IMG/VR virus record: IMGVR_UViG_3300043409_002481
Location: 11,700-75,699 of that record
Length of the DNA: 64,000 bases
Direction: 5' to 3' (one strand)
Source of the DNA: a virus
Made by a program: the position numbers and the translations under genes. Shown here in pieces: positions 10,565 to 44,887 of this stretch. Each line of letters opens with the position of its first letter. The first letter of the stretch is position 1. The notes beneath the pieces were generated by a model, which saw nothing but the letters and a program-made list of their open reading frames with translations, had not been told where the DNA came from and made no database searches.

Positions 10565-11317
10565 ATGAAATCTTATATTGTTGTGGCTACATCACAGCCA
10601 CAATCTCAGCCTCAGCCTAATGGCTTACCCTCGCAAGGGATAGATCCTTTGTTTATCTATATAGCTGGGCTTCTAACTACTGGACTCGCAGGATTTGGGG
10701 CGTTTTTACTCAAAGCTGGCAATAGTGATGTGGTATCAAAAACTGTTGCGGCAAAAATTAATCAAAAACAAGCGGAAACCAATGCAGAGGTTGCTGAGAA
10801 GCTTACTGATATTAATATTGAGAAGCAAATAGAAGAAAGCCGTATCGATCAAGCAGTAGCACTCGCGGAAATCGCGAAAGCTGGGGTAAGCCATTCGGCT
10901 GATACAACTAATTATTTACTCAGATTGGCTGAAGGGGCTTTAAACTCATCGGCTGCTAACGCTCAATCAACACAGGCATTATCAAGGGCTAGCGAATCGC
11001 AAGTACAAGCAACTGAAGACTTGATCAAAGCCACGACACACAACAGCGAAGCTTTAAAAGCCCTAAAAGAGGCAATAGAGGCAGTCCCAAAAGAGACAGC
11101 CTCTATACTAGAAATCCATGCAGCGGAATCAAGAATTGCTTTAGATAATATTGATCGTAGGATTGAGGAAAGCAATCAAATCAAGCATGAAGGTTACGAG
11201 CGAATCGAGAAAATTATCCACATAGCAGAAACCCGCATCATCGAACAATACACAGGTACGATCGCCCAGTTGCGGGTTGAGATAAAGGATTTAGAGAAAG
11301 TGGTTAAAGGTCAATAA
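10565..11317 (+). CDS. Membrane-anchored coiled-coil protein (possible lysis accessory/holin-like)
   Basis: One TM helix (LFIYIAGLLTTGLAGFGAFLL) then a coiled coil, at the end of the tail module. Confidence 0.45.
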   Translation: MKSYIVVATSQPQSQPQPNGLPSQGIDPLFIYIAGLLTTGLAGFGAFLLKAGNSDVVSKTVAAKINQKQAETNAEVAEKLTDINIEKQIEESRIDQAVALAEIAKAGVSHSADTTNYLLRLAEGALNSSAANAQSTQALSRASESQVQATEDLIKATTHNSEALKALKEAIEAVPKETASILEIHAAESRIALDNIDRRIEESNQIKHEGYERIEKIIHIAETRIIEQYTGTIAQLRVEIKDLEKVVKGQ

Positions 11318-11339
11318 AACGCAAATACTAGGATGCTGC

Positions 11340-12047
11340 TCATAACTCAATAGATTGGCTAGGATCGAGCTTACAGATAGCATCGTAAATGACGCGCTTA
11401 ATCAGGGTTAGAGCGCCGCCCCATTTCTGGATTGGTACTGATTCCCATGCTTTCAGCATACGCATAATGCTTGTTAGCTCTGATAGGCGATCGCTTTCGG
11501 AGCGAGTGAGGTTGTCTTCTAGGATTTGAGTCTGTTGATATAGCTTTTTATATTCAATCGTGCTACCTCTCAGAGCCGCGTCTCTTCCATCGATCTGGAC
11601 TTTGGCATCAGAACTAACAGTCTCTAAAGCTTCTCGCAGTCTTTCGATTTCTTTGTTCTTAGTGGTTAATTCTGCACATGCGGAATAAGCACCATCACAA
11701 ATTGCCTTCCAATTTGTGATTTGATGCCTCAACTCATCGCACTCATTTAACGCCAATTTAAGGCTGTGCTGTAACGCGATTGTGGGATCGGGAATGGGGA
11801 GAAGGAATTCAGCTAACTTATCAGCACAGTACGCAGAGAAATCAATATCACTAGCATTGCTAATATCTGTTACAAACGCACCAACAAGCCAAAATTCATC
11901 ACAATACTGCGATGCTGTAAAAAGCCCAGATTCTCCACCGCGTTCTAATGTTAATTTCACAGGAATTGATTGCCCTTCCTTCAAAATTCTGTCAGCTAAT
12001 TTGTAATCTGTACTAAATTGATAATATTGGTTATTCATAATATTCAT
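11340..12047 (-). CDS. Hypothetical coiled-coil protein; N-domain related to 18332-18697
   Basis: YQFSTDY...EGQSIPVKL...YCADKLAEFLLP resembles YELSKDH...QGDRLACEV...RCTELNIEFYLP. Confidence 0.6.
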   Translation of the reverse strand: MNIMNNQYYQFSTDYKLADRILKEGQSIPVKLTLERGGESGLFTASQYCDEFWLVGAFVTDISNASDIDFSAYCADKLAEFLLPIPDPTIALQHSLKLALNECDELRHQITNWKAICDGAYSACAELTTKNKEIERLREALETVSSDAKVQIDGRDAALRGSTIEYKKLYQQTQILEDNLTRSESDRLSELTSIMRMLKAWESVPIQKWGGALTLIKRVIYDAICKLDPSQSIEL

Positions 12048-12243
12048 CCATAGTTTGTTTATACCAAGTCCTATCCAATCGCTCGACCATGCTCACCGCA
12101 TAGCAGCGGCGCAACCACGCGATCTTAATCTCTCTCAATCTGCGATCGCGGTATTCAATCTGCGAGTCCACAAATCGCGCATACCAGCGGCAAATAAAAG
12201 CGAAGACGATTAAGGAGATCGGGATTAAAAGTAAATTAGTCAT
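12031..12243 (-). CDS. Small membrane protein
   Basis: N-terminal hydrophobic helix; GGAG RBS. Confidence 0.5.
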   Translation of the reverse strand: MTNLLLIPISLIVFAFICRWYARFVDSQIEYRDRRLREIKIAWLRRCYAVSMVERLDRTWYKQTMDEYYE

Positions 12244-12397
12244 AGCAGCTCCAAATAGTATCGATCGGTTTTCTTGTGGTAGTAATAATGGCTAGATTTT
12301 GGCTTTATTACTATGTTTTGCGGGTTTGGGATTTCCTGTAATTGGAGATAAAGTTTTGATGCTAGTGATCGCGTTAAGGGCGCTTCTGTCATATTTT

Positions 12398-12862
12398 TTA
12401 CGCGGCTTCAACTTGCGACAATTCAGGCAAGGGGAATAGATTTAAGTCCCCTTGCACTGGCAACGAATTATAAAAATCATCCCATTCAGCGATCGCAAAA
12501 TCGCTTAACGCTTCAATCAAATCAGAGTTGCGCTCTACGATTTGATGCGGTAATGAGGGGAAAGATATAGACATTTCACCGCAAGATTCATCATTAAACT
12601 TGAGAGAGAAATTTAACTTGCAAGGCTCTTTAAATTCATCGTAATCAAAAGAGATTTGATTAACGACAAAATCACAGGTTAGCTCTAAAGGGTAATGCCT
12701 CTCAATCAATCCATTTAGGAATTTTTCAACCTCATCAGCCAATGCATCAGAATTAAAGATAAGCCTCTCATGCGTTACCTTTTGGCTGTTGTGGTCAAGG
12801 TAAGAGATCTTAGTTATCAATTTCTCTTTGTCAAATTTAATAGCTGTTAAACGTCGTTTCAT
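12398..12862 (-). CDS. Hypothetical protein
   Basis: 154 aa with AGGAG RBS. Confidence 0.6.
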   Translation of the reverse strand: MKRRLTAIKFDKEKLITKISYLDHNSQKVTHERLIFNSDALADEVEKFLNGLIERHYPLELTCDFVVNQISFDYDEFKEPCKLNFSLKFNDESCGEMSISFPSLPHQIVERNSDLIEALSDFAIAEWDDFYNSLPVQGDLNLFPLPELSQVEAA

Positions 12863-12875: not shown

Positions 12876-14558
12876 TTAAATAATTTTCCTTGCTTCTAGT
12901 CCATTTCTTCCAGCGCTTCGAGTTTCCACATAGCCTTGCTCCTCTAAATACTGAAGATAGTTTTGTACTTCAGAGATCGGCGTTTTATTCCTTTTTAGGT
13001 CAGTGATTGACTCACGAATATGATTATCGCGCTCCCATCCCCTACCATTTAGAAAGTCAACAATTTTTAAAAATATTGGCTCTCTATCTTGCAGAAAATC
13101 AAAGTCAGAGTTATCAACAATCTCGCCAGATTTAACCGTGATTGTGTTGGATGGCTCTGCTAAATCATCAAGGGAGTAGACAGGATCGCCCTTGGTTAAC
13201 TTCGCAAAGTCGCTAGGTTCGCAAAGCAAAGACTGTAAGCGATCGCCATTAAAAAATAGATCGCCACGTCCTAGCAAATCGCGTCCATCGTAAGGGACTT
13301 TACCGAGTAAACACTCAGTATCGCCTTCTTCAAGTACCTTCAAAAGTGCTCTAGCTGGTAGATTAGAGCGAATCTTTTTATCGATCACATCAACAGCTTT
13401 TTGGGTAACGATACCCTCAGAGATTCCAGAAGCCCTAGCCATTTGACCTAATCGAATATTAATATTCATGATTTCAGCCCATTGCGCCTTACCCTCCTTA
13501 TCCTCTCCACAGGCAGATTTAAGATCGCCGTATTCGTCATTTAAGAAGAAAATACGTGGCAACTGCTCAGATTTAGAAACCCTTGCATTGTATTGATCAA
13601 TATTTTCAACCTTATACTCTGCAAACAGCGCATAGCGCCGCATCATTTCAGCTATCAGCCATCTACCAATTAAAATTACTTCTTCAGGTGTGTGGATAAT
13701 TGGGATTAGCAAATTAGCACAATCCTCAAAAGCAAAAAACGATACCCGTTTAGGATCGCAAATTACCACTAAGAACTCTTGAGGCGATCGCCCAATCAAT
13801 AGCGACAATAATAAGCTCTGTAGCCATACAGACTTACCCGATCCTGTAGTTCCAGCCGCTAGGATGTGGCAAGTCTCAGGATGCGATAAATCAATAGATA
13901 CGAGTTTATTGTTAATATCAACACCGATCGCCGCTTCTACTTTTTGACTAGATTTCCAGTAGTCAGAAAATCTAGCAATTTGGCGATCGCTGCGAGGGGT
14001 ATCAATGGCGATCGCACCTTTACTGATAGAGATAATAGGCGGCGAATCAAGGGCTAACTCTAGGTGTAATTCCTTGCCAATCCCTAGCACTTTTTGCGCT
14101 GTGCAATTAGTAGGTTTTACCAATGTGCGAACAAACGATGGAGATTTTAATTCACCAGCAAAATCACACTCTAACTTTTGGTTGTATAGCGCTCTTAGAA
14201 TCGGATGCGATGGAACTGGCTTAACTTGCTCTGCTTGCATCAAAGTTACTTCACGCTTAGGCGGCGCATAGGATACCGCTAAATGATTAGATAAGCCCTC
14301 ATTAGCTCGATTAACAACACTTAGATGGTTTTCACTGGCTAAACTTTGATTAAGTCTTGAGAGCTTAAAACATGTTGCTGTAGCTGCTAATTGAGAGATA
14401 AAGATAAAGCCCTTTGCGAAATCATTGGACTGAAATGGAATAGATAGGAATAGCAAGAAAGCGATAAATGAACTCGAAAGGCTCCCATAGTGAGAATAGC
14501 GCTGAGTAATAAGTACTAGCGCTACCTGTGATACATGGAAATCTTTTGTTAAGTTCAA
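12876..14558 (-). CDS. FtsK/SpoIIIE-family DNA translocase with N-terminal TM helices and C-terminal wHTH
   Basis: HILAAGTTGSGKS Walker A, ICDPKRV, EMMRRY, FFLNDEYGDL Walker B, ARASGI..TQK, LLGRGD. Confidence 0.92.
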   Translation of the reverse strand: MNLTKDFHVSQVALVLITQRYSHYGSLSSSFIAFLLFLSIPFQSNDFAKGFIFISQLAATATCFKLSRLNQSLASENHLSVVNRANEGLSNHLAVSYAPPKREVTLMQAEQVKPVPSHPILRALYNQKLECDFAGELKSPSFVRTLVKPTNCTAQKVLGIGKELHLELALDSPPIISISKGAIAIDTPRSDRQIARFSDYWKSSQKVEAAIGVDINNKLVSIDLSHPETCHILAAGTTGSGKSVWLQSLLLSLLIGRSPQEFLVVICDPKRVSFFAFEDCANLLIPIIHTPEEVILIGRWLIAEMMRRYALFAEYKVENIDQYNARVSKSEQLPRIFFLNDEYGDLKSACGEDKEGKAQWAEIMNINIRLGQMARASGISEGIVTQKAVDVIDKKIRSNLPARALLKVLEEGDTECLLGKVPYDGRDLLGRGDLFFNGDRLQSLLCEPSDFAKLTKGDPVYSLDDLAEPSNTITVKSGEIVDNSDFDFLQDREPIFLKIVDFLNGRGWERDNHIRESITDLKRNKTPISEVQNYLQYLEEQGYVETRSAGRNGLEARKII

Positions 14559-14863
14559 TGCCCTGCTCTCAATGCTTTTTCTAATTTGTGGTTAGCAGCT
14601 TTTAATCCTTCATCTGATACAGATCTAAGCTGCACATCGCTTTTAAATCCAGATTTATCCAGTAATTCACGATGCTTGTCTTCTAGTTGTTTGCGAGATT
14701 CCGAAACCTCTACTACTGCAACTTTAGGTTTGAGATAAGTCTCGTAAGCCCAACTACCAGCAAGCCAAGCAGCAGACAAAACACAAGAACTCATGGCGAC
14801 TAAAAAGGCTGTGCCAATTGCTCTGACATGATTAAGGTTGTGTCTGTGATGAGTTGTAGCCAT
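14555..14863 (-). CDS. Small membrane protein (FtsK operon)
   Basis: One TM helix; overlaps the FtsK start. Confidence 0.6.
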   Translation of the reverse strand: MATTHHRHNLNHVRAIGTAFLVAMSSCVLSAAWLAGSWAYETYLKPKVAVVEVSESRKQLEDKHRELLDKSGFKSDVQLRSVSDEGLKAANHKLEKALRAGH

Positions 14864-15014
14864 CTCGAATATCTCGCAATAATTGATTCTTTTTAAACGC
14901 AGATTTAGATTCCAAAATTTGCTCTGGTTGCGAGTTTAGGATGTAAGCTGCAAAGCCCAAATATCCTAAACTCGCAATAGTTAAAGCCGCTGAGACAATC
15001 TCTTTAATCTTCAT
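14832..15014 (-). CDS. Small membrane protein (FtsK operon)
   Basis: TM helix IVSAALTIASLGYLGFAAYIL. Confidence 0.55.
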   Translation of the reverse strand: MKIKEIVSAALTIASLGYLGFAAYILNSQPEQILESKSAFKKNQLLRDIRDGYNSSQTQP

Positions 15015-15113
15015 GCTCTTGGCAATACTTATCTTGATATTCGTCGGAATCCCAATTTTTGGGAATGCTAATCAAAGCCCCAAAAGCTTGCAGGATTGCA
15101 TTGATAAGCCTGC

Positions 15114-15296
15114 TCATTTTGCCCTCTGTATTTGTGCGGATGTAGGGATAGCAACGAATGCGACAACAATTGAGACGCTTAAAATCGCGCCACAGATAAC
15201 AAGCAAGGCAAGCATCACAATGATCTGATCTTTCTTTTGTAGTCGTCGGATCAGATCTTCGGTAGGAAGCGAGGCTAGATCAGGTGATGTCATCAT
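15114..15296 (-). CDS. Small membrane protein (FtsK operon)
   Basis: TM helix IIVMLALLVICGAILSVSIVVAFVAI. Confidence 0.6.
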   Translation of the reverse strand: MMTSPDLASLPTEDLIRRLQKKDQIIVMLALLVICGAILSVSIVVAFVAIPTSAQIQRAK

Positions 15297-15423
15297 TATT
15301 TTTCTTGCCTCTAAAAAGTAAAATTGGAATCATAATAACTCCAGCGATCGCAGCCGAGATGACGGCGAAAGGCTTGGCGATCGGATTGTGAATTGCGCCA
15401 TCTGATTCTTGGCTGCATCTCAT
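15280..15423 (-). CDS. 47-aa membrane protein (FtsK operon; not in ORF track)
   Basis: Hand-translated MRCSQESDGAIHNPIAKPFAVISAAIAGVIMIPIYFLEARKNNDDIT; TAATG-coupled to the upstream gene. Confidence 0.5.
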   Translation of the reverse strand: MRCSQESDGAIHNPIAKPFAVISAAIAGVIMIPILLFRGKKNNDDIT

Positions 15424-15890
15424 TATTTCAGCGCCCCTAAAGCCTTAAGCTTTGCTTCAACTTCATCCAATTCTGAGAGCTGCTCATCAGTAGCTTCAGA
15501 GCTTTTCTCTAATGCCACTAACTCATCGAATCGGGCTGTAAGTGCTTCGATTTCTGTAGGATTAGGCTCAACAGGGGAAGATGGAATGCACAAGAGCATA
15601 GGCGTATGACTCAGAGCGATCGGACTGTAGTTTTTCGACAAATTGGTAAAAAAATCAGGATCGATCTTTGGCTCTTCTAACGCACTATCGAACTCATCGC
15701 GCCATGCTTCAAATTTAATTCGTTGCACAACTGATCGGGCTTTATTGCGTTGATGGGTGTAAATCATCTCAAGACTACCTTCTAAGCCCTCAATAACGGG
15801 GATAGAGGTACTATTTGCATCTTGAGATGGCTTATCTTGAGATGCTTGATCAGCTTTTACTTCAGCTTTGGTCTTGTATTGAGTGTTCAT
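15423..15890 (-). CDS. Hypothetical coiled-coil protein (FtsK operon)
   Basis: ATGA-coupled to 15887-16129. Confidence 0.6.
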   Translation of the reverse strand: MNTQYKTKAEVKADQASQDKPSQDANSTSIPVIEGLEGSLEMIYTHQRNKARSVVQRIKFEAWRDEFDSALEEPKIDPDFFTNLSKNYSPIALSHTPMLLCIPSSPVEPNPTEIEALTARFDELVALEKSSEATDEQLSELDEVEAKLKALGALK

Positions 15891-16129
15891 AATGATCTTA
15901 AGATCCTTGCTATTTTTGTAGTATTTCTATTTCTCGAAGCGCCAAACGCTCTAGCAGCCTTGATTTGAGCGTTCTCAAGAATAATCTTTAACTCACTCTT
16001 TGTATAAGGTGGGTTGCCGACTCCTGAAAAAACTAAATCGCGCCATCTTTCAAATGTTTTTTGATTTAGTCCGTATGCCCTAATTATCTGCTGAACGCTA
16101 AGCTGTACCTCTGTTTGCGGGTGCGTCAT
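15887..16129 (-). CDS. Putative HTH DNA-binding protein, first gene of the FtsK operon
   Basis: LSVQQIIRAYGLNQKTFERWR, HTH-like. Confidence 0.55.
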   Translation of the reverse strand: MTHPQTEVQLSVQQIIRAYGLNQKTFERWRDLVFSGVGNPPYTKSELKIILENAQIKAARAFGASRNRNTTKIARILRSL

Positions 16130-16159
16130 GGCTTACGTCATGGCTTACGTCATGGCTTA
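16124..16159. repeat. 3x perfect 12-bp tandem repeat CGTCATGGCTTA
   Basis: Copies at 16124, 16136 and 16148; overlaps the start codon of 15887-16129. Confidence 0.95.
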
Positions 16160-16224
16160 TACTACAGCGCTGTAGCAAATAACGTCAAGTGCTATATTTA
16201 TATTTGTTTCTTAAGTGGTAATTT

Positions 16225-16467
16225 ATGGCAGGGCAACCTCGCAACATTAGGATCGATGATGATATCTATAGTGCGCTTATTCAGTGTGTAGCGGCGCGTA
16301 ATGCTAGGTTTGAAGCTGATGGCAGTAAAGAGCGAATCACTATTATTGATTTAATAAATGAGTCTTTGCGGTTACAGATGCCTATACATGTTTGGGATAA
16401 GCTAAATAATCGCGTGACCAAATTAGAGCAACAAGTAAGCAATATTGAGGAGAGATTAGACAAATAA
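16225..16467 (+). CDS. Ribbon-helix-helix-like regulator, divergent from the FtsK operon
   Basis: PRNIRIDDDIYSAL...IIDLINESL RHH-like pattern. Confidence 0.55.
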   Translation: MAGQPRNIRIDDDIYSALIQCVAARNARFEADGSKERITIIDLINESLRLQMPIHVWDKLNNRVTKLEQQVSNIEERLDK

Positions 16468-16897
16468 AAAAGGCGGATCGCTGTAGGGAGTGCGATCCGC
16501 CTTCACATCAAGAAAGTAACAAGTAACAAAGGTAACAATGCTCTTTTAGTATAGCTTTTAAATTTAAAAATAAAACATGCAACTACAATTAACCGAATAT
16601 CAAGTACAAGAGTCTTACCCCGCTCTGCTAGCAAATACCCATGATGTGCGATCGCTGAAAGGCTGTCACAATTGCAGATTTAATAATTGGCGACTCTGCA
16701 CTAAAGTACCGTCTAGGGATAGCGCTAGTTTTTATGCTGCGAACGATTGCCATGATTGGCAAAACAAAAGTACTTAAAAGCTAATCTTGATTTTAACCAT
16801 CGCGATTACTCAAAGCTTTGCGCTGTATAGAAAAAGTGCTTAAACGCTAATCGGTAAAAAGCGAATATTTGCGGATATAGCCAAATGACGGTCAAAT

Positions 16898-16940
16898 AAA
16901 AAAAAGAACTGCTCAAATAATTTGAGCAGTTCTTTTTTTT
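16898..16940. terminator. Bidirectional terminator
   Basis: A-tract gaactgctcaaa-taa-tttgagcagttc T-tract. Confidence 0.8.
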
Positions 16941-17427
16941 ATATTTGCTTGAACGGTCTACCACGTTTTACCGTGCCGTCACCGCTCCTGCTTTTCCCGC
17001 AATGCTTACAGATCCATTGCTGTATGCCTTTGCGTTTGCCGTTGCGTAGCCATTGGTGATCGCATTCTGGGAACTCAAAGAACTCAATCTTAAGACTGAG
17101 TTTTTGAACATATGGCGCAATTACGCGATCGCAATCATTAACTAATAAATCATTGCTGGCTGATGGCTCGATCCCATTACGATAGCTAACCGTAATGTGA
17201 GGTCTGGGCTTGTGGGGAATATTATCAGGCATTAACACAGAGATCGCTTGAATATCCTTATTCCAGATATTAGCGATCGCTGTTGCTTCAAACTCAGTGC
17301 CGACTAGGTGCTTATACTGAATCTTTTCCACATCATAAAACAGGGTGATGTGATGCGGACTGCCGTTTTTGAATATTGGCAGTACTACAAGGGGCGATCG
17401 TAGTACTGCCCAGAGAATACCTTTCAT
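16939..17427 (-). CDS. 2H phosphoesterase fused to a Zn-ribbon and AT-hook
   Basis: Two HxT motifs (HHITL, PHITV); C-terminal CDH...RNGKRKGIQQWICKHCGK and KRGRP. Confidence 0.7.
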   Translation of the reverse strand: MKGILWAVLRSPLVVLPIFKNGSPHHITLFYDVEKIQYKHLVGTEFEATAIANIWNKDIQAISVLMPDNIPHKPRPHITVSYRNGIEPSASNDLLVNDCDRVIAPYVQKLSLKIEFFEFPECDHQWLRNGKRKGIQQWICKHCGKSRSGDGTVKRGRPFKQI

Positions 17428-35456: not shown

Positions 35457-36013
35457 TTGTGATCACTTTACAGCCTAATCTATTCTCAATGTCTTTAGTC
35501 GTTACTGAAGAAGACAAAGACAACGATGAGAACTATACACCAGACCGAATCGTAAAACCATTCCGCGACTTGGTTGGAGGTTTCCACCTTGACGCTTTTT
35601 CATGCGCTAGAGCTAACGAAATCATCCAAGCTAAACTTTATTTTACAAAAGCCGATGATGCATTTAGTCAGGATTTAACGGAGTTCTACAACAAGTGGTT
35701 TAATCCACCGTATTCAAAGGGCAACATTGACAGGGCTGTAGAGTTAGTTTTGAGCTATGCCCATATTGGGAATAGCTTTTTATTGGTCAACTCAAATACC
35801 TCTAGCAATTGGTTTATAGACGCTCAAAAATATTGTGTATGCCAACTAACTTTTGATCAAAGAATTGAGTTCACAAACCCTAAAAATGATGGGACTAAAA
35901 AAGATTCTGGCAACACCAAAGGGCAGACATTATTTTACCTTGGAGTGGACTACACACCCAAGCAAATCAAGGCTTGCTGTAAGCATCTTGGCAATGTATC
36001 GGTAACTATTTAG
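35453..36013 (+). CDS. Phage N6-adenine DNA methyltransferase
   Basis: YTP, LDAFS, WFNPPYS, RIEF motifs of phage Dam-like MTases. Confidence 0.8.
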   Translation: MIVITLQPNLFSMSLVVTEEDKDNDENYTPDRIVKPFRDLVGGFHLDAFSCARANEIIQAKLYFTKADDAFSQDLTEFYNKWFNPPYSKGNIDRAVELVLSYAHIGNSFLLVNSNTSSNWFIDAQKYCVCQLTFDQRIEFTNPKNDGTKKDSGNTKGQTLFYLGVDYTPKQIKACCKHLGNVSVTI

Positions 36014-36292
36014 GATCAAAAATGTCAACAACTACACTAATAATAATCATCTTTACGATCGCTCTTTCTCTAGCGAGTCTAGCAATTTCGCTATTCTCAA
36101 TTATTTATTCTTTGAGGATCAAAAAATGAAATACTACAAAGCAACTACTGGCGAATATTACTCCGCCAAAAATATCCTAGATGCATTGGCAGCAGCTAGA
36201 CACAAACATCCAAACACGACTCCATCCCTGAAGCTAATTGACAGAGGCGAAATCCCCTCAGACGCAAAAATAATCGAGACTGGCGAAATAAT

Positions 36293-37021
36293 CTAGCAAG
36301 CCAACAGCATTAATGGTGACGCATTGTACACAGGCGCAGCTAGCGATCGCTTGGGGTAAACCAAAGGATTATGTACTAACCCTGAATAGCCCTGCACAAA
36401 TGAAACAGAGCCGTTTTCTGTCCAGTTATACCCATTGCCCGAATAATCCTTGCTCCTTTGGGCATCGGATGGTGATGGCATGTAGCGGACTAGATTTGCT
36501 GTACGCTGTGGAGTTGATCTCCACATCTGATTGAGTATTTCCGTATTTGTAAGCGCGGCTGAATATTGATAGAGCTGATCTATATTGCCATCCAATTCAT
36601 AGGGGAACGCAGCATTTAAAGCTCCTACAATATTTTTCCCTACAGCAGCCCGACCAGTGATATTAGTGCTATTAGTGGCTACAGATACGCCATTTTCGTA
36701 AACGATTAAGGCAGTTGCAGACTCTCTAACCACTGCCACATGTACCCACACACCAAAGCCAGAAGTGAATGAGGGTTGAATATTATTAGATCCTGCGATC
36801 CCTACATCAATATAGAAATTAGTTGAACTAATCAGAGCAACGTAATCGTAATTATTTAGACTGCCTGTGTCGTTACCGTCTGTTATGCCAAAAAATGACA
36901 AAGCCGCGTCTGGTTGGCTATTGATAAAAAACCATGCCATCAGCGTATATGGCAGGTTGTAATCAATCAGATTCGTTGTTACTTGGAGGTCTTCGCCAGA
37001 AGCGTTTAATAATACAGCCAT
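36293..37021 (-). CDS. LamG/ConA-like lectin domain virion protein
   Basis: YTLMAWF...WVHVAVV...VYENGV...GNIDQLYQYSAALT. Confidence 0.75.
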   Translation of the reverse strand: MAVLLNASGEDLQVTTNLIDYNLPYTLMAWFFINSQPDAALSFFGITDGNDTGSLNNYDYVALISSTNFYIDVGIAGSNNIQPSFTSGFGVWVHVAVVRESATALIVYENGVSVATNSTNITGRAAVGKNIVGALNAAFPYELDGNIDQLYQYSAALTNTEILNQMWRSTPQRTANLVRYMPSPSDAQRSKDYSGNGYNWTENGSVSFVQGYSGLVHNPLVYPKRSLAAPVYNASPLMLLAC

Positions 37022-37027
37022 GATTCT

Positions 37028-37519
37028 TTAGCTCGCGTCATAAATTCCAGCCGATAGCAAAGCAACCGTAGCAGCTACATTTGACCCCACACTGATATCT
37101 CGATCTAGGCGGAAAATCACGTATTCCCCTGCTGCAACAGAGTCTCTATTGGTTAGGGTGATAGATATCTCTTTCGGATTGAAGGTAGTCCCTGCAACCG
37201 CTATAGAGCCGCTTGAGTTAGCAGTGTCAAAACTATTACTCGTATCGATATTGATTGCCTCCAAGGAGGCGATCGCCTCAACTTGTACCCGAAATTGCAT
37301 ATTACCAGTTGTAGCTGAACAGGCTGTGAGAGCTTTAAAAGTTAAATCGCCTGTGAATAATGGCATCGGCATACAGGCAGAGCGAAGAACCTCTGATACG
37401 CTCTGTCTAAAACCCCATGCACTACGTTCAGCGCCGCCTGTTGCGGTTTTGATGTACACGGGAAAATTTGCGCCAAGTGGCAAGAAAATTTCATTTGGCA
37501 GTGGAAGGATAAGAGCCAT
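37028..37519 (-). CDS. Virion structural protein
   Basis: Beta-rich; located in the fibre operon. Confidence 0.55.
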   Translation of the reverse strand: MALILPLPNEIFLPLGANFPVYIKTATGGAERSAWGFRQSVSEVLRSACMPMPLFTGDLTFKALTACSATTGNMQFRVQVEAIASLEAINIDTSNSFDTANSSGSIAVAGTTFNPKEISITLTNRDSVAAGEYVIFRLDRDISVGSNVAATVALLSAGIYDAS

Positions 37520-38058
37520 TACAAAACCCTCCTCAGATTGTATTTTTTGAGTGAAGCGTTAACTGTTGTGCGGTCTTGAACGTTAAGACTAGCTGCTGTA
37601 GCTAAAGCTGCTAACGCAAAGTAAAAACCGTTATCATTAGCAGGGGCGCGAAGTTTAAATACTGAAGAAGAGCCTAATCCAGCTTTGCCAACTCCAAACA
37701 ATCTAAACCCAAGGCTAGGTTTTACATCTATTTGATCCATCAGTAGTCTGCCGATGCGATCGCGATTAGCGTTAGCAGTATCAAAATAATCAGCTAGGAA
37801 CGCTGTAGGATTGCCAACTGCATCTAAATCTAAGGCGACTACTACCCAAGTTTTTGTAGCTGTTTGCGCCTCTAGATCGATGACTGGTGTTCCCTCGTCT
37901 AATCTCTCTATATCAGGATCGATTGTTGGACGATCACTAATTATTTGAGGTAAATAATATCCATCAACAATCTCTGACCCCGACTCAAGTTTCACCCATT
38001 TCTCGAATGTGCGATCGGGTGTGAGGAGAGCATATATTCCTGTTGTTTCGATAATCAT
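37519..38058 (-). CDS. Tail-fibre-associated/assembly protein
   Basis: Likely start MIIETT; RPTIDPDIERL...KTWVV motif. Confidence 0.5.
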   Translation of the reverse strand: MIIETTGIYALLTPDRTFEKWVKLESGSEIVDGYYLPQIISDRPTIDPDIERLDEGTPVIDLEAQTATKTWVVVALDLDAVGNPTAFLADYFDTANANRDRIGRLLMDQIDVKPSLGFRLFGVGKAGLGSSSVFKLRAPANDNGFYFALAALATAASLNVQDRTTVNASLKKYNLRRVL

Positions 38059-38104
38059 ATTTTTTTGTCTAAAGGTTAGCCGCCTGACATGACGGCTTTG
38101 TTGA

Positions 38105-38425
38105 TTAAAGTTCAGAAGTAGGCACAAACATTGTTGTAATTTCTCCAGCCATCCGCACATCGTAATCGCCTGTGAGGTAGCGAACAAAATAATCGAGAGG
38201 CAAGACCAATCGAGGACTACCACTTAGCACAATAGAGAATACGCGGATGATATTCTCGCCTGTGGTTTCCACATCAAAAACTTCTTGAGTTTGAGTGTTG
38301 TACCAACGAGAACACTGATTATATAGAGTGGTTCCTAGGAATGTTTCGATCTCTGAGTAGTTTGAGCCTGTAAATTCCACGTAATCAACAAAGTGATCTC
38401 TATAACCAGCTCTTACAATTGCCAT
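38105..38425 (-). CDS. Hypothetical protein
   Basis: AGGAG RBS. Confidence 0.55.
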   Translation of the reverse strand: MAIVRAGYRDHFVDYVEFTGSNYSEIETFLGTTLYNQCSRWYNTQTQEVFDVETTGENIIRVFSIVLSGSPRLVLPLDYFVRYLTGDYDVRMAGEITTMFVPTSEL

Positions 38426-38482
38426 GAGTTTTTGCTCCTATAGTTTTTAGCGTTACACCCGCACTATTCGGGACTGAAAATC

Positions 38483-39385
38483 TTACCAAGATGCAATGCA
38501 AATATAGCCATCACCGCCTCGACCTCCAGCTCCACCAGTGACACCGCCACCGCCACCGCCACCACCTGAACCTAGTCCAGCCGATCCACCAGCACCACCA
38601 ACACCAGCCGCGCCATTAGAACCGCCGCCTGATCCCCCTGCTGTATAAAATGTGGGGAAAAACGAGGAATAGCCATCAATTCCAGCTCCACCACCAGCAA
38701 CACCGCCTGAGATTACAGGATAGATACCAGCCGCTGTAATATTTCCCCCTGCGTTATTTGTGTTTGCAGTGGGAGTACTTCCACCACCAGCGCCGCCGCA
38801 AGTAATACTAGTGGCGAATTGAGTAATACTGCCACCAGCAGCACCACCAACAGCACCACCAGCACCGCCGCTCATACCTGCAACTGAGGTAAAAATACCT
38901 AAAGCAATATATGCCGCTTGGGTTGCACCCGATACCGTCTCACCAGCACCAGCCGTACCAGCTACAGCTCCACCACCAGCTACAGCATTACCAGAAGCTA
39001 AAACTACATTATGACTAGCCGCCGCCGCCGCATTGGTTCGCAATATCAGCGATCGTTGCCCAGCCGTGCCTGCTCCGTTAGCTGCACCACCAGCTCCACC
39101 AGCACCAACTTGGATATACAAAAGATCGGGCAATAAAAAAGCTGGTATCAGTAATCGTGCCTGCCCACCTGCACCGCCGCCACCACCGCCTGTTCTACCA
39201 GTACCAGCCGCGCCCGTTGCACCACCAGCACCACCAGCACCAGAGCCGATCGCAAGCATATAAACAAACGTACAACCTTGAGGTTTTACCCAAGCCTGAA
39301 AAGTGGCGTTACCAGTGGCGAAAAACTCTTTAATTTCACCGCCAAAACCGCCTTGTCTTTGAGAAGTTTGGAATCCTGCAAACAT
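38483..39385 (-). CDS. Glycine-rich virion/fibre protein
   Basis: WVKPQG...IGSGAGG...GGRGGDGYICIASW Gly-rich domain. Confidence 0.75.
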   Translation of the reverse strand: MFAGFQTSQRQGGFGGEIKEFFATGNATFQAWVKPQGCTFVYMLAIGSGAGGAGGATGAAGTGRTGGGGGGAGGQARLLIPAFLLPDLLYIQVGAGGAGGAANGAGTAGQRSLILRTNAAAAASHNVVLASGNAVAGGGAVAGTAGAGETVSGATQAAYIALGIFTSVAGMSGGAGGAVGGAAGGSITQFATSITCGGAGGGSTPTANTNNAGGNITAAGIYPVISGGVAGGGAGIDGYSSFFPTFYTAGGSGGGSNGAAGVGGAGGSAGLGSGGGGGGGGVTGGAGGRGGDGYICIASW

Positions 39386-39825
39386 TACAAATCACCGCCC
39401 CATCCAGTAAAGTACCAACCCAAAGCCGCGCCAACGGTTGTACCTAAACAGACATTTATTTTGTAGCCGTTTGGGAGCATCTTAAATACGGGGAGTACGA
39501 ACTCTTGAATAGCTGCGTTTGCCGAACCTGTAGTAGCTTGCAGAGCTAACTCTGCAAAGAATGAATTATTGGCTGCCGTTGTGTTAGCTGAGCCATTATT
39601 AACAAAAAATCTAGCCACATTAGCAACGTTATTAGAGCCTGTATGACTAACAGGTTTTACGGTAATAGTTTGGACAAAACCGCCTTCAGCTTCTGCCCCG
39701 TTAGCTGTCCATATTGTTGCTACTGTACCCGTCCCATCGGTAGCTGTATTCGCCGCCGTATTGATGATCGACACCCATTGGACATTAGGTCTGCGACAAA
39801 AGATTGGTGATGTATTTGCTGCCAT
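39385..39825 (-). CDS. Virion structural protein
   Basis: MAANTSPIF...VARFFVNNG...GGDL, commonly paired with Gly-rich proteins. Confidence 0.65.
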   Translation of the reverse strand: MAANTSPIFCRRPNVQWVSIINTAANTATDGTGTVATIWTANGAEAEGGFVQTITVKPVSHTGSNNVANVARFFVNNGSANTTAANNSFFAELALQATTGSANAAIQEFVLPVFKMLPNGYKINVCLGTTVGAALGWYFTGWGGDL

Positions 39826-39893
39826 TTGGTTTGCCTTTGATATACTTGATTTGTATTTAATTAGTAATTCTAGAAAAAACTAGTTAAATGTCA

Positions 39894-39958
39894 GGTGTGC
39901 TAGCTCAAGGGAGCGTACTGGTGGACAGTAAGGTAGGTTCGATTCCTAATGCACATCA
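39894..39958 (+). ncRNA. Degenerate tRNA-like cloverleaf (pseudo-tRNA)
   Basis: GGTGTGC/GCACATC acceptor stem, TA-GCTC-AAGG-GAGC D arm, TACTG/CAGTA anticodon stem, TAGG-TTCGATT-CCTA T arm. Confidence 0.55.
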
Positions 39959-40528
39959 TTAAAAAAAGTTAGCTCTTGCCGCTAAAACTGAACCTAAAGC
40001 CAATGGCACGACAGCCGCAGGATAAGCCCCAATCGTCGTACCAATTAGATCCCATTTAGAATCTGTTGAGTTATACCGAAATCCGATATAGTCTTCAGCG
40101 CTCGATCCTGTGGTAGCAGTTGGCAAAGAGAGGGAGCTAGCAGCCTGATAGGCAGTGCCAAAAGAAATCGCCCTTGAAGTGCTACTTGTAATCCTGATTT
40201 GGAGTAATTGTCCATTAGTGGGACTGCCTGTCGGATTAGCGAAAGTAGTCGTTTGAGAGAGGCTAGTAAGTATGCCAAGATCCGTTGTATCGGCGTTTGG
40301 GGTAACAGTGGCTGCATCGGTGAGGGTGACAACTCTCAAAGAGCCGCCCGATCCCCCAACGTTTTCCCATGTTGAACCATTGCTAATTTGCAATACGCCG
40401 CCACTAATTCGCAACGCATCCGCACCAGCACTAGCGGCAGAGATACTTGATTCTGTACCAATGCCGCGCAAAACATTTGATTGATTGTCTAGACCGAATC
40501 TAGCTCTTAGAGGCGTTTGAGTTCCCAT
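39959..40528 (-). CDS. Tail fibre/virion protein
   Basis: FANPTGSPTNGQLLQIRI...DYIGFRYNSTDSKWDL motif. Confidence 0.65.
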   Translation of the reverse strand: MGTQTPLRARFGLDNQSNVLRGIGTESSISAASAGADALRISGGVLQISNGSTWENVGGSGGSLRVVTLTDAATVTPNADTTDLGILTSLSQTTTFANPTGSPTNGQLLQIRITSSTSRAISFGTAYQAASSLSLPTATTGSSAEDYIGFRYNSTDSKWDLIGTTIGAYPAAVVPLALGSVLAARANFF

Positions 40529-40559
40529 AAAGTTCCCTTCCCTTTATAGATTGAATTGA

Positions 40560-42008
40560 TTAAGCAGCGATCGCACGATAAGTCACGCGATACACAGTCA
40601 CCGCGTTTGTTGGAGTCACAAGCAGGCGAAGGTTACCGCCATTAATATCGGTGTTAATCGTGGTTAGCGAAGCACCTGTAAAAATGTCGCCATACTGAGT
40701 ATGAGAAGGAGTTGTCCCATCATGAATCATAGGCACAGTAAGCGTGTGATAGCTCGATCCACTAACAATACTAATATCGGCAATAAGAGATCTGTAAAGA
40801 GTTGCAGAAACAGAGAGCAGAACTTGGTCGGCGGTTGTTGCTGCCGTGGTCAGTGTTGCAGATCCTAGTAAAGCTTGAGCTAGTCCAAGGCTGACGGCTG
40901 TAGGAGTATTGAGTACAGGCGATCCTGTGAAGGTTGGAGTACCGCCACTAAAAATTACAGAGCCAGCCGTCCCACTTTCATCGGTCAAAGCCGCCGCTAA
41001 GTTGGCGCTTGAAGGAGTGGCTAGGAAGGTTGCGATGTTAGCGCCTAAGCCAGATACACCTGTACTGATAGGCAGTCCAGTAGCATTTGTGAGAGTTGCG
41101 CTTGATGGCGTTCCTAACGCACCGTTAAAGGTTGTAAATGCACCAGCCGAGCCGATGGCAACAGCCAAGGCAGTAGCAACACCCGTCCCAAGCCCAGATA
41201 TACCCGTCGATACGGGTAAGCCTGTTGCATTGGTCAAAGTTCCGCCTGATGGAGTGCCAAGAGCGCCACCATTGACAACTACTGATCCAGCCGTGCCAAT
41301 ATTGACCGCTAATGCTGTTGCGACACTAGTTCCAAGCCCACTGACCCCTGTGGCTATGGGCAGCCCTGTAGCATTAGTAAGTGTTCCGCTAGATGGAGTA
41401 CCAAGCGCTCCATTAAAAGTGACAAAAGCACCTGCCGAACCAACGTTTACACCAAGGGCTGTAGCTACGCCTGTACCCATCGTAAGTGCAGAAGCTACCC
41501 CAGATGTCAGGTTTAAAAGCCCTGTCCCCGTTGATCTTTTAAGTAGTTTCCCTGACGTATCAGCAAATAATGCAACTTCATCAACTACTGATGTAGCCGT
41601 ATTTGTCGATGCATCACCACCAGCGCCACCAACAAGAGCAGCACCCGATCGCCTTGAGTAGAATAGGCAGCGCCAATTACCCGATCCTTCGGATACAAAC
41701 AAGGCTGTATCACCTGCGGCAGTTGTGATGCTCGCGCTAGTTGGCAGGATTAGCGAAGTTGCGTTATAGGTGAGAGTTAATACACCTGTAAAGGTGACGT
41801 TTCTCCATACGCCAGCCGCGCTAGTGCCAAGCCCTGTAATGCTTGTAGTACCTGTAATCTGTACATAGTTACCAAGCGCCGCCCCTATGTCAGTCGTGGT
41901 AGCTGATGCAATATCAGCACCCTTTGCCATATTTACAGCACGGTCAAAAGTACTGGTTAGATCGGCTCTAATCCCTAACGGAAATCTTGTTGCTACTGGT
42001 GTTCCCAT
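40560..42008 (-). CDS. Tail fibre protein with three ~48-aa internal repeats
   Basis: ALGTPSSGTLTNATGLP..TG.SGLG repeats at a 144-bp period. Confidence 0.75.
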   Translation of the reverse strand: MGTPVATRFPLGIRADLTSTFDRAVNMAKGADIASATTTDIGAALGNYVQITGTTSITGLGTSAAGVWRNVTFTGVLTLTYNATSLILPTSASITTAAGDTALFVSEGSGNWRCLFYSRRSGAALVGGAGGDASTNTATSVVDEVALFADTSGKLLKRSTGTGLLNLTSGVASALTMGTGVATALGVNVGSAGAFVTFNGALGTPSSGTLTNATGLPIATGVSGLGTSVATALAVNIGTAGSVVVNGGALGTPSGGTLTNATGLPVSTGISGLGTGVATALAVAIGSAGAFTTFNGALGTPSSATLTNATGLPISTGVSGLGANIATFLATPSSANLAAALTDESGTAGSVIFSGGTPTFTGSPVLNTPTAVSLGLAQALLGSATLTTAATTADQVLLSVSATLYRSLIADISIVSGSSYHTLTVPMIHDGTTPSHTQYGDIFTGASLTTINTDINGGNLRLLVTPTNAVTVYRVTYRAIAA

Positions 42009-42010
42009 TT

Positions 42011-42640
42011 CTATACCTCCATAGTGGTTCTAAACACTTTTATTTTTGTATTCGCAGAAACTGGCGTAACCAATAACCGCACATTCGCCCCGTTTAATTC
42101 AAATCTAAAAGTAGCTAGATCGCCACTACTTTTGATGTTTGCGTACTGAGTATATGGAGGCGGATCGAGTCCATTATTTGAAACCAAGATTTCTGAAGCA
42201 TGGGTATCGGAGCCTGAAGAAATTTGGATTAAATATTTAGCAGTGCGATACAAAGTTCCATCAAAGCTATCAACTACTTGATCGGCTGTAGTGCTAGAAG
42301 TAGTTAATTGCGCCCCTGTAATCCTTCCTATATTTGGGATTGAGAGGGTAGCAAAATCAATATTAGTAATCGCAAACGAGCCGCTAGAATTACGCTGTAC
42401 TAAGGTGTTTGCTGTATTTAAAGCCGAATAAGCAGCCGTGGCTATTTTGGCTAGAGTTACCGATACAGCATTGATCGCCCAATTAGAACCGCCACTAGAT
42501 ACCGTAATATCGCCTTTGTTACCATCGGTTACACCACCACCATTAATCTGAACAGGCGCAGTCTGGATTATTAGAGTCGCCTGATTAGGACGCTCAATAA
42601 TCTGTAACAGTGGCTCTGTGACTTTCAGTATTTGCGTCAT
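42011..42640 (-). CDS. Fibre/virion protein sharing its C-terminal domain with 40560-42008
   Basis: TTADQV...TLYR...TQY...NG.N.RLLVTP occurs in both. Confidence 0.7.
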   Translation of the reverse strand: MTQILKVTEPLLQIIERPNQATLIIQTAPVQINGGGVTDGNKGDITVSSGGSNWAINAVSVTLAKIATAAYSALNTANTLVQRNSSGSFAITNIDFATLSIPNIGRITGAQLTTSSTTADQVVDSFDGTLYRTAKYLIQISSGSDTHASEILVSNNGLDPPPYTQYANIKSSGDLATFRFELNGANVRLLVTPVSANTKIKVFRTTMEV

Positions 42641-43002
42641 GGCGACACCACAGGATCAATGACCAAAATCTCTAGCTGAGTTTTAAATGTTGGCACAGGA
42701 TCAGAGATTAAAGATAGAAAGCAATGTCCCACCCATGTACCCGCACTCATAGCTTCGGTTTGAGTGTCGCTAAATTCAAATGTTGCAAGACCATCGTCAT
42801 ACCTCGTAATAGTTGGAATCACGATGTTGGTAGAAATCAAAGCAGAGGCGATCGCAAAGTAAATATCGTATAAATCTAAATCCAAATAAACAGGAGCCGC
42901 TAGCGTACCTGTCGCAAAAGTAAATTGATCGCGCCAAGGAAAGCCCTTAAGGATAGGGTTATTCTTAAATTTATTTACGGGTAACGGTTCAGCGCAACTC
43001 AT
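42637..43002 (-). CDS. Virion protein (possible BppU-like N-domain)
   Basis: Late operon position; FEFSDTQTEAM motif. Confidence 0.45.
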   Translation of the reverse strand: MSCAEPLPVNKFKNNPILKGFPWRDQFTFATGTLAAPVYLDLDLYDIYFAIASALISTNIVIPTITRYDDGLATFEFSDTQTEAMSAGTWVGHCFLSLISDPVPTFKTQLEILVIDPVVSP

Positions 43003-43049
43003 TTATTTATTAAAATAGGCGACCTTGCGATCGCCTATTCCATTTAGAT

Positions 43050-43256
43050 TTATTCGGGATCTACAGGGACTGCTAACGTAGTAGCCTTAGCCTTTTTCTT
43101 AGGTGCGATCGCTTCTGGTTCGCCCTCAACAATCGGACTTAAATCAGGCGGTGACGTTAGCCATCCGTCTGCAATCCAGCCTTCAACATCATGGTGATGG
43201 ATTCGTCTTAATTCCCCTGTTTTAGGGTGATAAAGATTCATTTTCATGATTAGCAA
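43050..43256 (-). CDS. Small head-associated protein
   Basis: Follows the capsid and decoration genes. Confidence 0.5.
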   Translation of the reverse strand: MLIMKMNLYHPKTGELRRIHHHDVEGWIADGWLTSPPDLSPIVEGEPEAIAPKKKAKATTLAVPVDPE

Positions 43257-43696
43257 CCAGATGGAACGAGGTATGCACCAAAAGTGAGGTTTCCTGCTGT
43301 GCTGAGTTTGGTAGCTACAATTCGTAAAAACCTTGCATTAGCAAAAGTTTTATTAATTTGTTCGCCGCTCAAGAATACCTCTTGACCATTGAGAGCCGCG
43401 CCAGCCGCTACAGTAGGAGCGATAGAGGCGACTTGACGATAAGTACCGCCAACAGTGTCGCAAACTTCAAGAGATAAAGTCCAGCTAACCGATCCAGCCG
43501 AATAGCTAGAGTAAGCAGCCTGATTGATGATCACTTTTACCGATTCTTCAGCAGTAAAAGGATATTCAATGGGAGTACCTGTGAAAGTTGAACTAGCAGC
43601 AGCAGCCGTGTAATCGCGCAAAGTAGTAAGAGCGTCAATCTGCGACGTATTCGCAGGACGTGGCAATGTAGATTTGAAAGCGCCTGAGTAGACCAT
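43250..43696 (-). CDS. Putative capsid decoration/cement protein
   Basis: Beta-sandwich ORF right after MCP; RFLRIVAT...FGAYL. Confidence 0.55.
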   Translation of the reverse strand: MVYSGAFKSTLPRPANTSQIDALTTLRDYTAAAASSTFTGTPIEYPFTAEESVKVIINQAAYSSYSAGSVSWTLSLEVCDTVGGTYRQVASIAPTVAAGAALNGQEVFLSGEQINKTFANARFLRIVATKLSTAGNLTFGAYLVPSGC

Positions 43697-43765
43697 AATT
43701 TTCTCTTTAATTGGGTTGAAAGCATTGCAAAATATCAATTACGGGAAATCCCATAATTGATATTT

Positions 43766-44719: not shown

Positions 44720-44735
44720 ATTTATGATTCCTAAC

Positions 44736-44832: not shown

Positions 44833-44887
44833 CATTAACTTGGATTAACCTGATAATATCATATTAATAATTAATGTTGCAAAAGCC

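Follow-up and report, generated by a model that had tools for sequence, protein, structure and literature searches.

A predicted FtsK-type membrane translocase module at a fixed phage locus with exchanged motors in tailed phages of Pseudanabaenaceae

Introduction

What does a tailed phage of filamentous cyanobacteria do with an FtsK-type DNA motor whose gene is translationally coupled to a series of tiny membrane proteins? This question is raised by an operon at positions 16129 to 12876, on the minus strand, of a 64,000-nt stretch of DNA (the window) that corresponds to bases 11700-75699 of the IMG/VR virus record IMGVR_UViG_3300043409_002481; the record is linear, 75.7 kb long and estimated to be 72% complete. 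An earlier note on this DNA likened the operon to the TraB/Spd system by which Streptomyces plasmids transfer double-stranded DNA (dsDNA), and suggested that the phage might pass its genome along or between cyanobacterial filaments without virions, or segregate as a plasmid prophage. Here we describe the operon, its ATPase (g8, the product of the eighth gene), its relatives and its genomic contexts. By sequence comparison, the module is an FtsK-superfamily membrane translocase module of mobile elements and not a member of the TraB family. New for the g8 family are its distribution restricted to Pseudanabaenaceae, its sharing between phages and plasmids, and its fixed locus with interchangeable motors.

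Structure of the ATPase

The g8 gene (12876..14558, minus strand) encodes a 560-aa ATPase with an N-terminal hydrophobic hairpin, an FtsK alpha/beta motor and a predicted C-terminal winged helix. Pfam, PDB and Foldseek agree on the FtsK/SpoIIIE assignment that had been made in the earlier note. The protein matches PF01580 (FtsK_SpoIIIE) with an E-value of 2.4e-29 and 102.8 bits, against a gathering cut-off of 24, as well as phrog_1358 (E 2.7e-42), and residues ~142-436 align to the alpha/beta motor of Pseudomonas aeruginosa FtsK in the PDB with an E-value of 4e-33. The Walker A (GTTGSGKS) and Walker B (DE) motifs are intact. An AlphaFold (AF2) model built on 26 homologues, with a mean predicted local distance difference test score (pLDDT) of 75.6, begins with three helices at the N-terminus, joined by a disordered linker to the FtsK motor, and ends in a domain with a helix-helix-helix-helix-hairpin layout. 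A Foldseek search with this model returned FtsK first (E 1.7e-22), with TcpA (2.5e-16) and EssC (8e-10) following.

The two outer parts of the protein are less clear-cut. Where transmembrane (TM) helices had been proposed, the 26 homologues conserve two hydrophobic segments of ~15 residues with basic residues on either side, separated by a short loop (P-S-H-W or P-F-Q-S-N-D); over 15 residues these reach Kyte-Doolittle values of 1.2-2.5, at the margin of what true TM helices show. The N-terminus is compatible with a membrane hairpin of borderline hydrophobicity that would leave the motor cytoplasmic. A complex prediction for residues 1-115 together with the 102-aa product of g7 scored 0.00 against a mark of 0.32, which is evidence neither way. 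As for the proposed C-terminal winged helix-turn-helix (HTH), the fold itself is predicted: the last 81 residues, modelled alone, reached a pLDDT of 86 with an H-H-H-H-beta-beta layout, and resemble the winged helices of ArsR/SmtB, BlaI, MarR and RosR with TM-scores of 0.6-0.7, but at E-values of only 8e-3 or above. A PDB profile search with this domain gave no significant sequence match to any solved chain. The model therefore suggests a three-part build of membrane association, translocase and C-terminal winged helix, in which membrane insertion is a prediction.

Tandem FtsK-like domains of the EssC/EccC type are absent from g8, which has a single ATPase domain and scores 74 bits with the EssC model (cut-off 778) and 55 bits with the EccC model (cut-off 509). 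Protein export resembling the type VII secretion system was rejected on account of this single domain and the DNA-binding winged helix. A role as packaging motor was likewise rejected, with a portal gene present in the record.

Relatives, phylogeny and distribution

Close homologues of g8, at 60-92% identity, come from metagenomes, and a group at 43-48% includes proteins named after Pseudanabaena. The next relatives are cyanobacterial fusions of an exonuclease, a PD-(D/E)XK domain and FtsK, ~850 aa long and ~40% identical over the motor. In a maximum-likelihood tree of 27 ATPase cores, g8 lies in a well-supported clade with the Pseudanabaena proteins, next to a group of 470-aa proteins (g470) and the cyanobacterial fusions, all within a clade of 21 rows that includes cyanobacterial and cellular FtsK (support 95/95). 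Cellular FtsK and the FtsKs of phages Omega and BSP9 branch outside the g8, 470-aa and fusion groups; gp053 of phage CrV-01T is unplaced. The four Streptomyces plasmid Tra/TraB proteins form their own clade, apart from g8, so that the expected placement with TraB was not borne out. Core BLAST scores with g8 were 57 bits for Tra of pIJ101, 119 for FtsK and 171 for the cyanobacterial fusions.

We searched for the family in a class-wide sample of 401 cyanobacterial species and, additionally, in 71 species of Pseudanabaenaceae. Five genomes of the 401-species sample have a full-length or N-terminal match to g8, all five in the Pseudanabaena family, and the full-length family occurs in 10/71 Pseudanabaenaceae species; it was found in none of the ~360 other cyanobacterial species sampled. 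Enrichment in filamentous over unicellular hosts had been put forward as a check on the transfer reading. The only carriers found are indeed filamentous, but they form one host clade, so this distribution cannot separate 'filamentous' from 'related'. A full-text literature search found no paper joining Pseudanabaena, phage and FtsK.

The ~850-aa fusions, which combine a 3'-5' exonuclease, PD-(D/E)XK, FtsK alpha and the FtsK motor, occur in many cyanobacteria, among them Dolichospermum, Oscillatoria and Pleurocapsa, and are annotated plainly as 'DNA translocase FtsK' (P0063, P0084, P0085 and others). FtsK-like genes are found in 284 phage records, mostly of Bacillus and Mycobacterium phages. 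Mycobacterium phage Omega has a gene with two TM segments just upstream of its FtsK gene, a recombination directionality factor (RDF) gene beside it and a Ku-like gene close by. In CrV-01T (L048:1123-4497, gp049-gp053), a phage of filamentous Nostocales, three small membrane-protein genes and a 138-aa gene without a predicted membrane span lie upstream of a 672-aa FtsK; the layout is analogous and the proteins are distantly related.

Organization of the operon

Relatives of the locus were collected: seven IMG/VR contigs (L002-L008) were found through the ATPase, and five more (L059, L061-L064) through a flanking 250-aa gene. The operon consists of eight minus-strand open reading frames (ORFs) between 16129 and 12876, whose neighbours overlap by 1-32 nt; it is as tightly coupled as the earlier note described, and four further ORFs on the same strand reach 11340. 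The g8 gene is translationally coupled to four or five tiny membrane proteins and two acidic proteins, under a sigma-70-like promoter of its own with a palindrome.

The first gene, g1 (15887..16129, minus strand), encodes an 80-aa basic protein that is 64% identical in the seven sister loci; the HTH assigned to it has behind it one weak Pfam match, to HTH_23 (E 0.0023), which lies below the cut-off. It is followed by g2 (15423..15890, minus strand), which encodes a 155-aa acidic protein with 28 aspartate and glutamate residues, 85-88% identical in six sister loci and 40% in L008; it has no match in Pfam, PHROG, PADLOC or Atlas. Four small proteins with single membrane spans had been proposed downstream, and a clear span is present in three of them. 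These are the 47-aa g3 (15280..15423, minus strand; hydrophobic span at residues 14-40), the 60-aa g4 (15114..15296, minus strand; residues 21-57; 45-52% identical in the sister loci) and the 102-aa bitopic g7 (14555..14863, minus strand; residues 13-37), whose stop overlaps the ATPase start by 4 nt and which is 78-81% identical beside all three ATPase versions described below. In the fourth, the 60-aa g6 (14832..15014, minus strand; 66-74% identical in the sister loci), the N-terminal hydrophobic span is marginal, with a Kyte-Doolittle value of 1.62 over 19 residues. The g3 gene has no counterpart in the sister loci and is an extra gene of this phage only. The short ORF suspected at ~15004-15117 proved to be real: g5 (15004..15117, minus strand) encodes a 37-aa acidic peptide with a W-D-S-D-E-Y-Q motif, and the ORF is kept at the same position in the sister phages. 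A similar motif was recognized by eye, unscored, in L008 and in a 62-aa peptide of L035, and a 50-aa peptide of L034 is loosely alike.

Divergent from the operon is a small regulator gene (16225..16467, plus strand) for an 80-aa protein, which has a homologue beside every sister version of the operon at 31-91% identity. Its assignment as a ribbon-helix-helix (RHH) protein goes by pattern only: no Pfam or PDB profile matched, and Atlas gave faint RHH leads, leaving the divergent small gene confirmed and its fold unconfirmed.

Control region

A consensus scan placed a sigma-70-like promoter, TTGACG-18 nt-TAGTAT, at 16159..16188 on the minus strand, with both hexamers kept in the seven sister loci. 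Between the -35 and -10 hexamers lies a perfect 14-bp palindrome, CTACAGCGCTGTAG (16162..16175), a candidate operator to which binding would be expected; it is kept in L008 and is a near-palindrome in L002-L007.

The 3x12-bp tandem repeat that the earlier note placed between the divergent gene and the operon is real and perfect, with 3.0 copies of CGTCATGGCTTA at 16124..16159 (Tandem Repeats Finder score 72), and overlaps the 5' end and start codon of g1. It begins at the end of the -10 hexamer and spans about +1 to +36 of the predicted operon transcript. Three consecutive copies of TAAGCCATGACG on the operon strand make two ATG-ACG-TAA mini-frames and then the g1 start codon; such a leader could affect translation of the operon. 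The repeat is not kept as a tandem array in the seven relatives. Two spaced copies of GCCATGACGCACAC lie instead inside the coding 5' end in the sister phages, including L008, whose regulator is 91% identical. Because the sister phages hold two spaced partial copies, the array looks like a product of local slippage in the leader and not like a conserved cis site of the clt kind. A clt-like role, as in Streptomyces plasmids, is therefore not upheld for a repeat that lies at the operon 5' end over the g1 start codon. Neither clt nor an RHH operator can be claimed for it, as L008 lacks the tandem array despite its 91% identical regulator. No other repeat clusters were found at 10-18 kb apart from HIP1.

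A fixed locus with exchanged motors

In the seven contigs found through the ATPase the whole gene order is kept, and the ATPase shares 66-84% identity with g8 over its first ~110 and last ~85 residues. The middle is exchanged: the core is HerA/DUF87-like in a 419-aa version of the protein and of a third kind in a 441-aa version. Neither version has the FtsK alpha domain; Walker A, Walker B and an R-K-x-G...Q motif are kept in both.

The five contigs found through the flank have the same right flank (the regulator and a 66-aa gene) and most of the left flank (g10-g12), with other operons in between. In L061-L064 these operons encode three to four membrane proteins besides an acidic protein, together with two membrane-anchored enzymes, a P-loop ATPase and a hydrolase with Peptidase_M23 (E 1.7e-9) and SLT (E 4.9e-5) domains; in L062 this 394-aa hydrolase lies inside the ATPase operon, at 10710-11894 on the minus strand. 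It could be the lysin of the phage, or it could serve an envelope machine by opening the wall. A 164-aa SNase nuclease is encoded in the same locus in L061 and L064 (E 5e-12), and L059 has a 318-aa P-loop protein and membrane proteins there. Overall, a membrane-protein-plus-P-loop-ATPase operon is present at this locus in 13/13 sister contigs examined, with at least five motor versions.

Phage and host

The 'cyanophage' label given earlier to the element is supported by its genes, its HIP1 count and its CRISPR matches. The window encodes a portal, a DnaB-type helicase and a DnaD-like loader, and contains 97 occurrences of the HIP1 octamer GCGATCGC, against 0.86 expected. Positions 36000-55999 were compared at the DNA level with the 71 species that GTDB places in the family of Pseudanabaena sp. 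'Roaring Creek'. The search returned matches of 32-43 bp at 88-97% identity, clustered within a few kb of two genomes, G425 and G415. These sites are arrays of clustered regularly interspaced short palindromic repeats (CRISPR), with repeats of ~35-37 nt and spacers of ~35 nt. The three arrays, L053 (G425:C297:48000-52600), L054 (G415:C118:1-4000) and L055 (G425:C163:23500-26500), have ~37 to >60 repeats each, and in total 11 of their spacers, from the two Pseudanabaenaceae genomes, match this part of the window at 88-97% identity. Because Pseudanabaenaceae spacers match the window, the element is, by its sequence, a tailed phage of Pseudanabaenaceae, which are filamentous cyanobacteria. The arrays with matching spacers give a host assignment for the phage lineage.

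A blastn search of the region against 50,697 phage records gave no match. The 75.7-kb record, estimated to be 72% complete, yielded no ParA, integrase or resolvase, and nothing supports the plasmid-prophage state suggested in the earlier note. Lysozyme, amidase and SLT were likewise not found in the phage record.

Phage-like and plasmid-like carriers

On Pseudanabaena genomes the g8 family occurs in two kinds of context, phage-like and plasmid- or island-like. The phage-like contexts (L010 and L036) have a collagen-like tail-protein match, a match to a PHROG without assigned function (E 2e-115), a DUF3854/D5_N primase-helicase and two small HTH-like genes that diverge from each other. The plasmid- or island-like contigs are G414:C1 (111 kb), G412:C2 (297 kb) and G238:C1 (70 kb), which jointly encode ParA, a serine recombinase, a type I restriction enzyme and a Tn3 transposase; one has a replication-type 1150-aa gene. 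The module core on them comprises the ATPase and, besides an acidic protein of ~90 aa and an acidic peptide of 50-62 aa, an upstream bitopic protein of ~100 aa that has two conserved cysteines. Between g7 and the 95-106-aa membrane proteins of these Pseudanabaena elements no homology was detected (profile-profile probability 0.3), and they are positional analogues only.

G412:C2 and G238:C1 additionally have a type IV secretion system (T4SS) cluster 28-45 kb from the module, complete by its appearance, that includes a 915-aa VirB4-like gene as well as a coupling protein matching PF02534 (E 1e-33). The T4SS-like clusters, at L056:14922-19493 and L057 (both G412:C2) and L058:9119-19068 (G238:C1), include small membrane proteins and a VirD4/TraG-type 645-aa gene, with a Toprim-type 719-aa gene in G412:C2; G412 has three copies of the cluster. 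On G414:C1 (L032:9799-16706) the FtsK module directly adjoins a type I restriction-modification system; ParA is on the other side of that system, and a pair of HigB/HigA-type appearance sits between the hsdS-like gene and hsdR. HsdR was checked with Pfam; the hsdM, hsdS and HigBA labels were given by eye.

Comparison with known systems

The likeness to the Streptomyces system holds in architecture. Like TraB, g8 belongs to the FtsK superfamily of ATPases and combines an N-terminus predicted to associate with the membrane and a predicted winged helix at the C-terminus; Tra of pIJ101 combines PF01580 with a MarR-type winged HTH. As in the pIJ101/pSVH1 system, there are translationally coupled small membrane proteins, a divergent repressor-type gene and a multicellular filamentous host, and the element is without relaxase or VirB4 (VirB4, MOBP and MOBQ were sought in the 75.7-kb record). 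The reading is not supported by the clade of the ATPase, by the search for Spd and Kor counterparts, by the repeat or by gene order: the membrane genes are upstream of the ATPase here and downstream in pIJ101. Moreover, the regulator here is not of the GntR type, and the module is carried by a tailed phage of a diderm host. The tiny membrane proteins and the divergent small regulator are only positional and architectural analogues of Spd and Kor.

Cellular FtsK/SpoIIIE (the P. aeruginosa and Escherichia coli FtsK motors; PDB 2IUU, 6T8O, 2IUS) is the best sequence and fold match over residues ~142-436, and has the same domain order of anchor, linker, motor and C-terminal winged helix. It differs in its four-TM domain (annotated '4TM domain-containing FtsK'), where g8 has a two-segment hairpin and a very short linker; the winged helix of g8 is not detectably a gamma domain, and g8 is a mobile-element gene with dedicated small partners. 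The ~850-aa fusions are among the nearest motor relatives outside the g8 family, with 41-44% core identity, about level with g470. Unlike g8, they have nuclease domains in place of the hairpin, no such C-terminal winged helix and a chromosomal location.

TcpA of Clostridium perfringens plasmid pCW3 (PDB 6O1X), the second fold match in Foldseek, is likewise an FtsK-like ATPase that is anchored in the membrane and encoded by a mobile element. Wall hydrolases belong to Tcp-type systems too, as they do to sister versions here. In contrast to TcpA and VirD4, however, g8 stands in a record in which no VirB4, relaxase (MOBP, MOBQ) or other T4SS gene was found, and G412:C2 and G238:C1 have the separate VirD4-type PF02534 protein inside the T4SS cluster. 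TdtA of ICEth1 in Thermus thermophilus is a membrane-associated hexameric ATPase of the HerA/FtsK superfamily that expels donor dsDNA and has a nuclease partner (PMC5365140). The sister versions with HerA-like cores and SNase resemble it by description, not by sequence comparison; unlike g8, TdtA has no described TM segment or winged helix, and its partners, NurA and a restriction enzyme, are absent here. Finally, gp053 of CrV-01T, gp203 of Omega and gp079 of BSP9 (phrog_1358) are likewise FtsK motors in tailed phages, with upstream membrane-protein genes in CrV-01T and Omega. Their motors are only 30-33% identical to that of g8, they lack the N-terminal hairpin and C-terminal domain of the g8 family, and the hosts of such phages include non-filamentous bacteria.

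Possible functions of the module

FtsK-type motors, by family, form hexameric dsDNA translocases. As predicted from the sequence and the model, the operon would be an autonomous, repressor-controlled accessory unit that builds a membrane-tethered, sequence-reading dsDNA pump. The purpose we tentatively prefer for this pump is to move or place the element's own DNA across the cell boundary, either between neighbours in a trichome or by export to recipients. The divergent small protein, the g1 protein or both would repress the operon in the way that kor genes silence toxic kil/tra genes. On expression the ATPase would dock on the small membrane proteins through its conserved N-terminal domain, the winged helix would then bind element DNA, and the motor would pump dsDNA at or through the cytoplasmic membrane or septum. 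This mode of action would be similar to that of Streptomyces TraB/Spd (PMC4447253) or Thermus TdtA (PMC5365140), outside both families. A DNA-moving role is favoured because phages and plasmid-like elements of a filamentous host both carry the module, because sister versions add a wall hydrolase and a nuclease, and because kil/kor-like control and tight coupling suit a potentially toxic multi-subunit membrane machine. Membrane proteins, a P-loop ATPase, a wall hydrolase and a nuclease are typical parts of envelope-crossing DNA-transfer machines.

By analogy with these systems, cell-to-cell spread is a possibility. The stronger version, in which phages and plasmids would share a T4SS-independent, TraB-like conduit of FtsK/HerA-type pump, tiny membrane proteins and sometimes a wall hydrolase, and would pass their dsDNA genomes along the trichome so that infection proceeds without virions, we consider improbable. 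A number of observations weigh against transfer across the cell boundary. The ATPase and TraB are in different clades, with 29% identity between g8 and pIJ101 Tra over 224 aa in BLAST; BLASTP of all operon proteins against SpdA, SpdB, ORF66, KilB and KorA of pIJ101 gave E-values of at least 0.26, so that Spd and Kor have no sequence homologues in the operon; and, unlike in pIJ101, no conserved clt-like repeat cluster was found here. This phage's own version of the operon has no wall hydrolase, and a diderm envelope with a two-membrane septum would be a harder path than the Streptomyces cross-wall. FtsK-like genes with a membrane-protein neighbour also occur in phages of non-filamentous hosts. 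Because FtsK-like genes are common in Bacillus and Mycobacterium phages, and Omega and CrV-01T have membrane genes upstream, a filament-specific function is not required. On the plasmid-like contigs, G412:C2 and G238:C1 have their own T4SS with a VirD4-type coupling protein, and the module is therefore not needed for their conjugation; judged by these gene clusters, it is neither the coupling protein nor the sole transfer route of these elements. On G414:C1 the neighbouring type I restriction system and apparent toxin-antitoxin pair form a pattern like that of defence or exclusion genes. The locus itself is, by its gene content, a cargo hot-spot with swapped motors, a pattern that is also typical of such genes. 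The sequencing runs that contain the stretch are one freshwater metagenome, probably its source, and three with small shares, with no RNA run listed.

Several of these points lead to another explanation, that the module is a superinfection-exclusion or defence cassette in which the pump and its partners intercept incoming rival DNA and block it, expel it or pass it to a nuclease. The hot-spot is fixed in position while motor and partners are exchanged among near-identical phages, the module is common to phages and plasmid-like elements, some with their own T4SS, the G414 module adjoins a restriction system and an apparent toxin-antitoxin pair, and two sister versions include the SNase nuclease. 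The ATPase domain also matches the FtsK-like parts of the SspH, mad8 and HerA models in PADLOC-DB 2.0. These matches, however, are to the ATPase domain only, and 0/8 neighbouring products scanned gave one (g5 and g10-g12 left out). This phage's version has no nuclease or other effector, and the presence of the operon in 13/13 sister contigs looks more core-like than cargo-like, although seven of these contigs were found through the ATPase itself. The exclusion proteins known to us are, moreover, small membrane proteins without an FtsK motor, and we regard this explanation as rather unlikely.

The relationships of g8, which is nearest to cyanobacterial FtsK-like proteins and cellular FtsK and not to conjugative ATPases, would suit an intracellular helper in replication, recombination or segregation, which would clear or sort DNA at the septum and resolve concatemers or dimers, none of it leaving the cell. 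The serine recombinase and ParA of the plasmid-like carriers, and the RDF gene adjoining the Omega FtsK gene near a Ku-like gene, point the same way. Such a helper would leave unexplained the tiny membrane proteins, the wall hydrolase and nuclease of the sister versions, and the operon's own repressor-type control; the phage record yielded no recombinase, and the motor can be replaced by short P-loop cores without the FtsK alpha domain. We find it improbable. Still less can be said for a lysis or envelope-remodelling cassette, in which the small proteins would be holin-, antiholin- or spanin-like and the ATPase an accessory regulator of envelope breaching; it seems very improbable. The many tiny single-span proteins of the operon, the membrane-anchored M23 and SLT hydrolase in the same operon of sister versions and the lack of any other lysin found in the record would fit it, but this phage's version is without the hydrolase, non-lysing plasmid-like elements carry the same ATPase and membrane partner, and we know of no lysis system that uses an FtsK-type DNA motor with a DNA-binding winged helix. 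Both the helper and the lysis explanations account for fewer features than transfer or exclusion and defence.

Should the module indeed carry DNA from cell to cell, it would constitute the first route of TraB-like dsDNA transfer outside Actinobacteria and a case of virion-free phage spread in a multicellular bacterium, with bearing on bloom-forming cyanobacteria and their gene flow. If it is instead an exclusion or defence device, it would represent a new class built on a membrane-tethered DNA pump. The locus offers a natural experiment, as 13 sister contigs share flanks and regulator and differ in motor (at least five) and membrane partners, which makes function testable by swaps. FtsK-like genes are annotated in hundreds of phage genomes without a known role, and a tractable case would help to explain them.

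Additional features of the locus

The minus-strand run continues beyond the ATPase with four further genes. The first, g9 (12398..12862), encodes a 154-aa acidic protein with no family assigned and is absent from L002-L008. As neither g9 nor g3 has a counterpart in these contigs, small insertions occur even inside one version of the module. The next gene, g10 (12240..12392), encodes a 50-aa protein that is kept in L061-L064 at 76-82% identity. The 70-aa g11 product (12031..12243) is a single-span membrane protein with its span at residues 1-25; this gene belongs to the conserved flank and is present in 11/12 sister contigs, with no match in L061. The last gene of the run, g12 (11340..12047), encodes a 235-aa protein that is also part of the conserved flank, at 32-64% identity, with only a 23-residue piece in L061; its SbcC-like match is weak and scores far below the cut-off. 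On the other side of the operon, a perfect 23-bp inverted repeat with a 1-nt loop and runs of A and T beside it lies at 16896-16942 of the window, between the convergent 66-aa gene (plus strand) and a 162-aa gene (minus strand), and looks like a two-way terminator.

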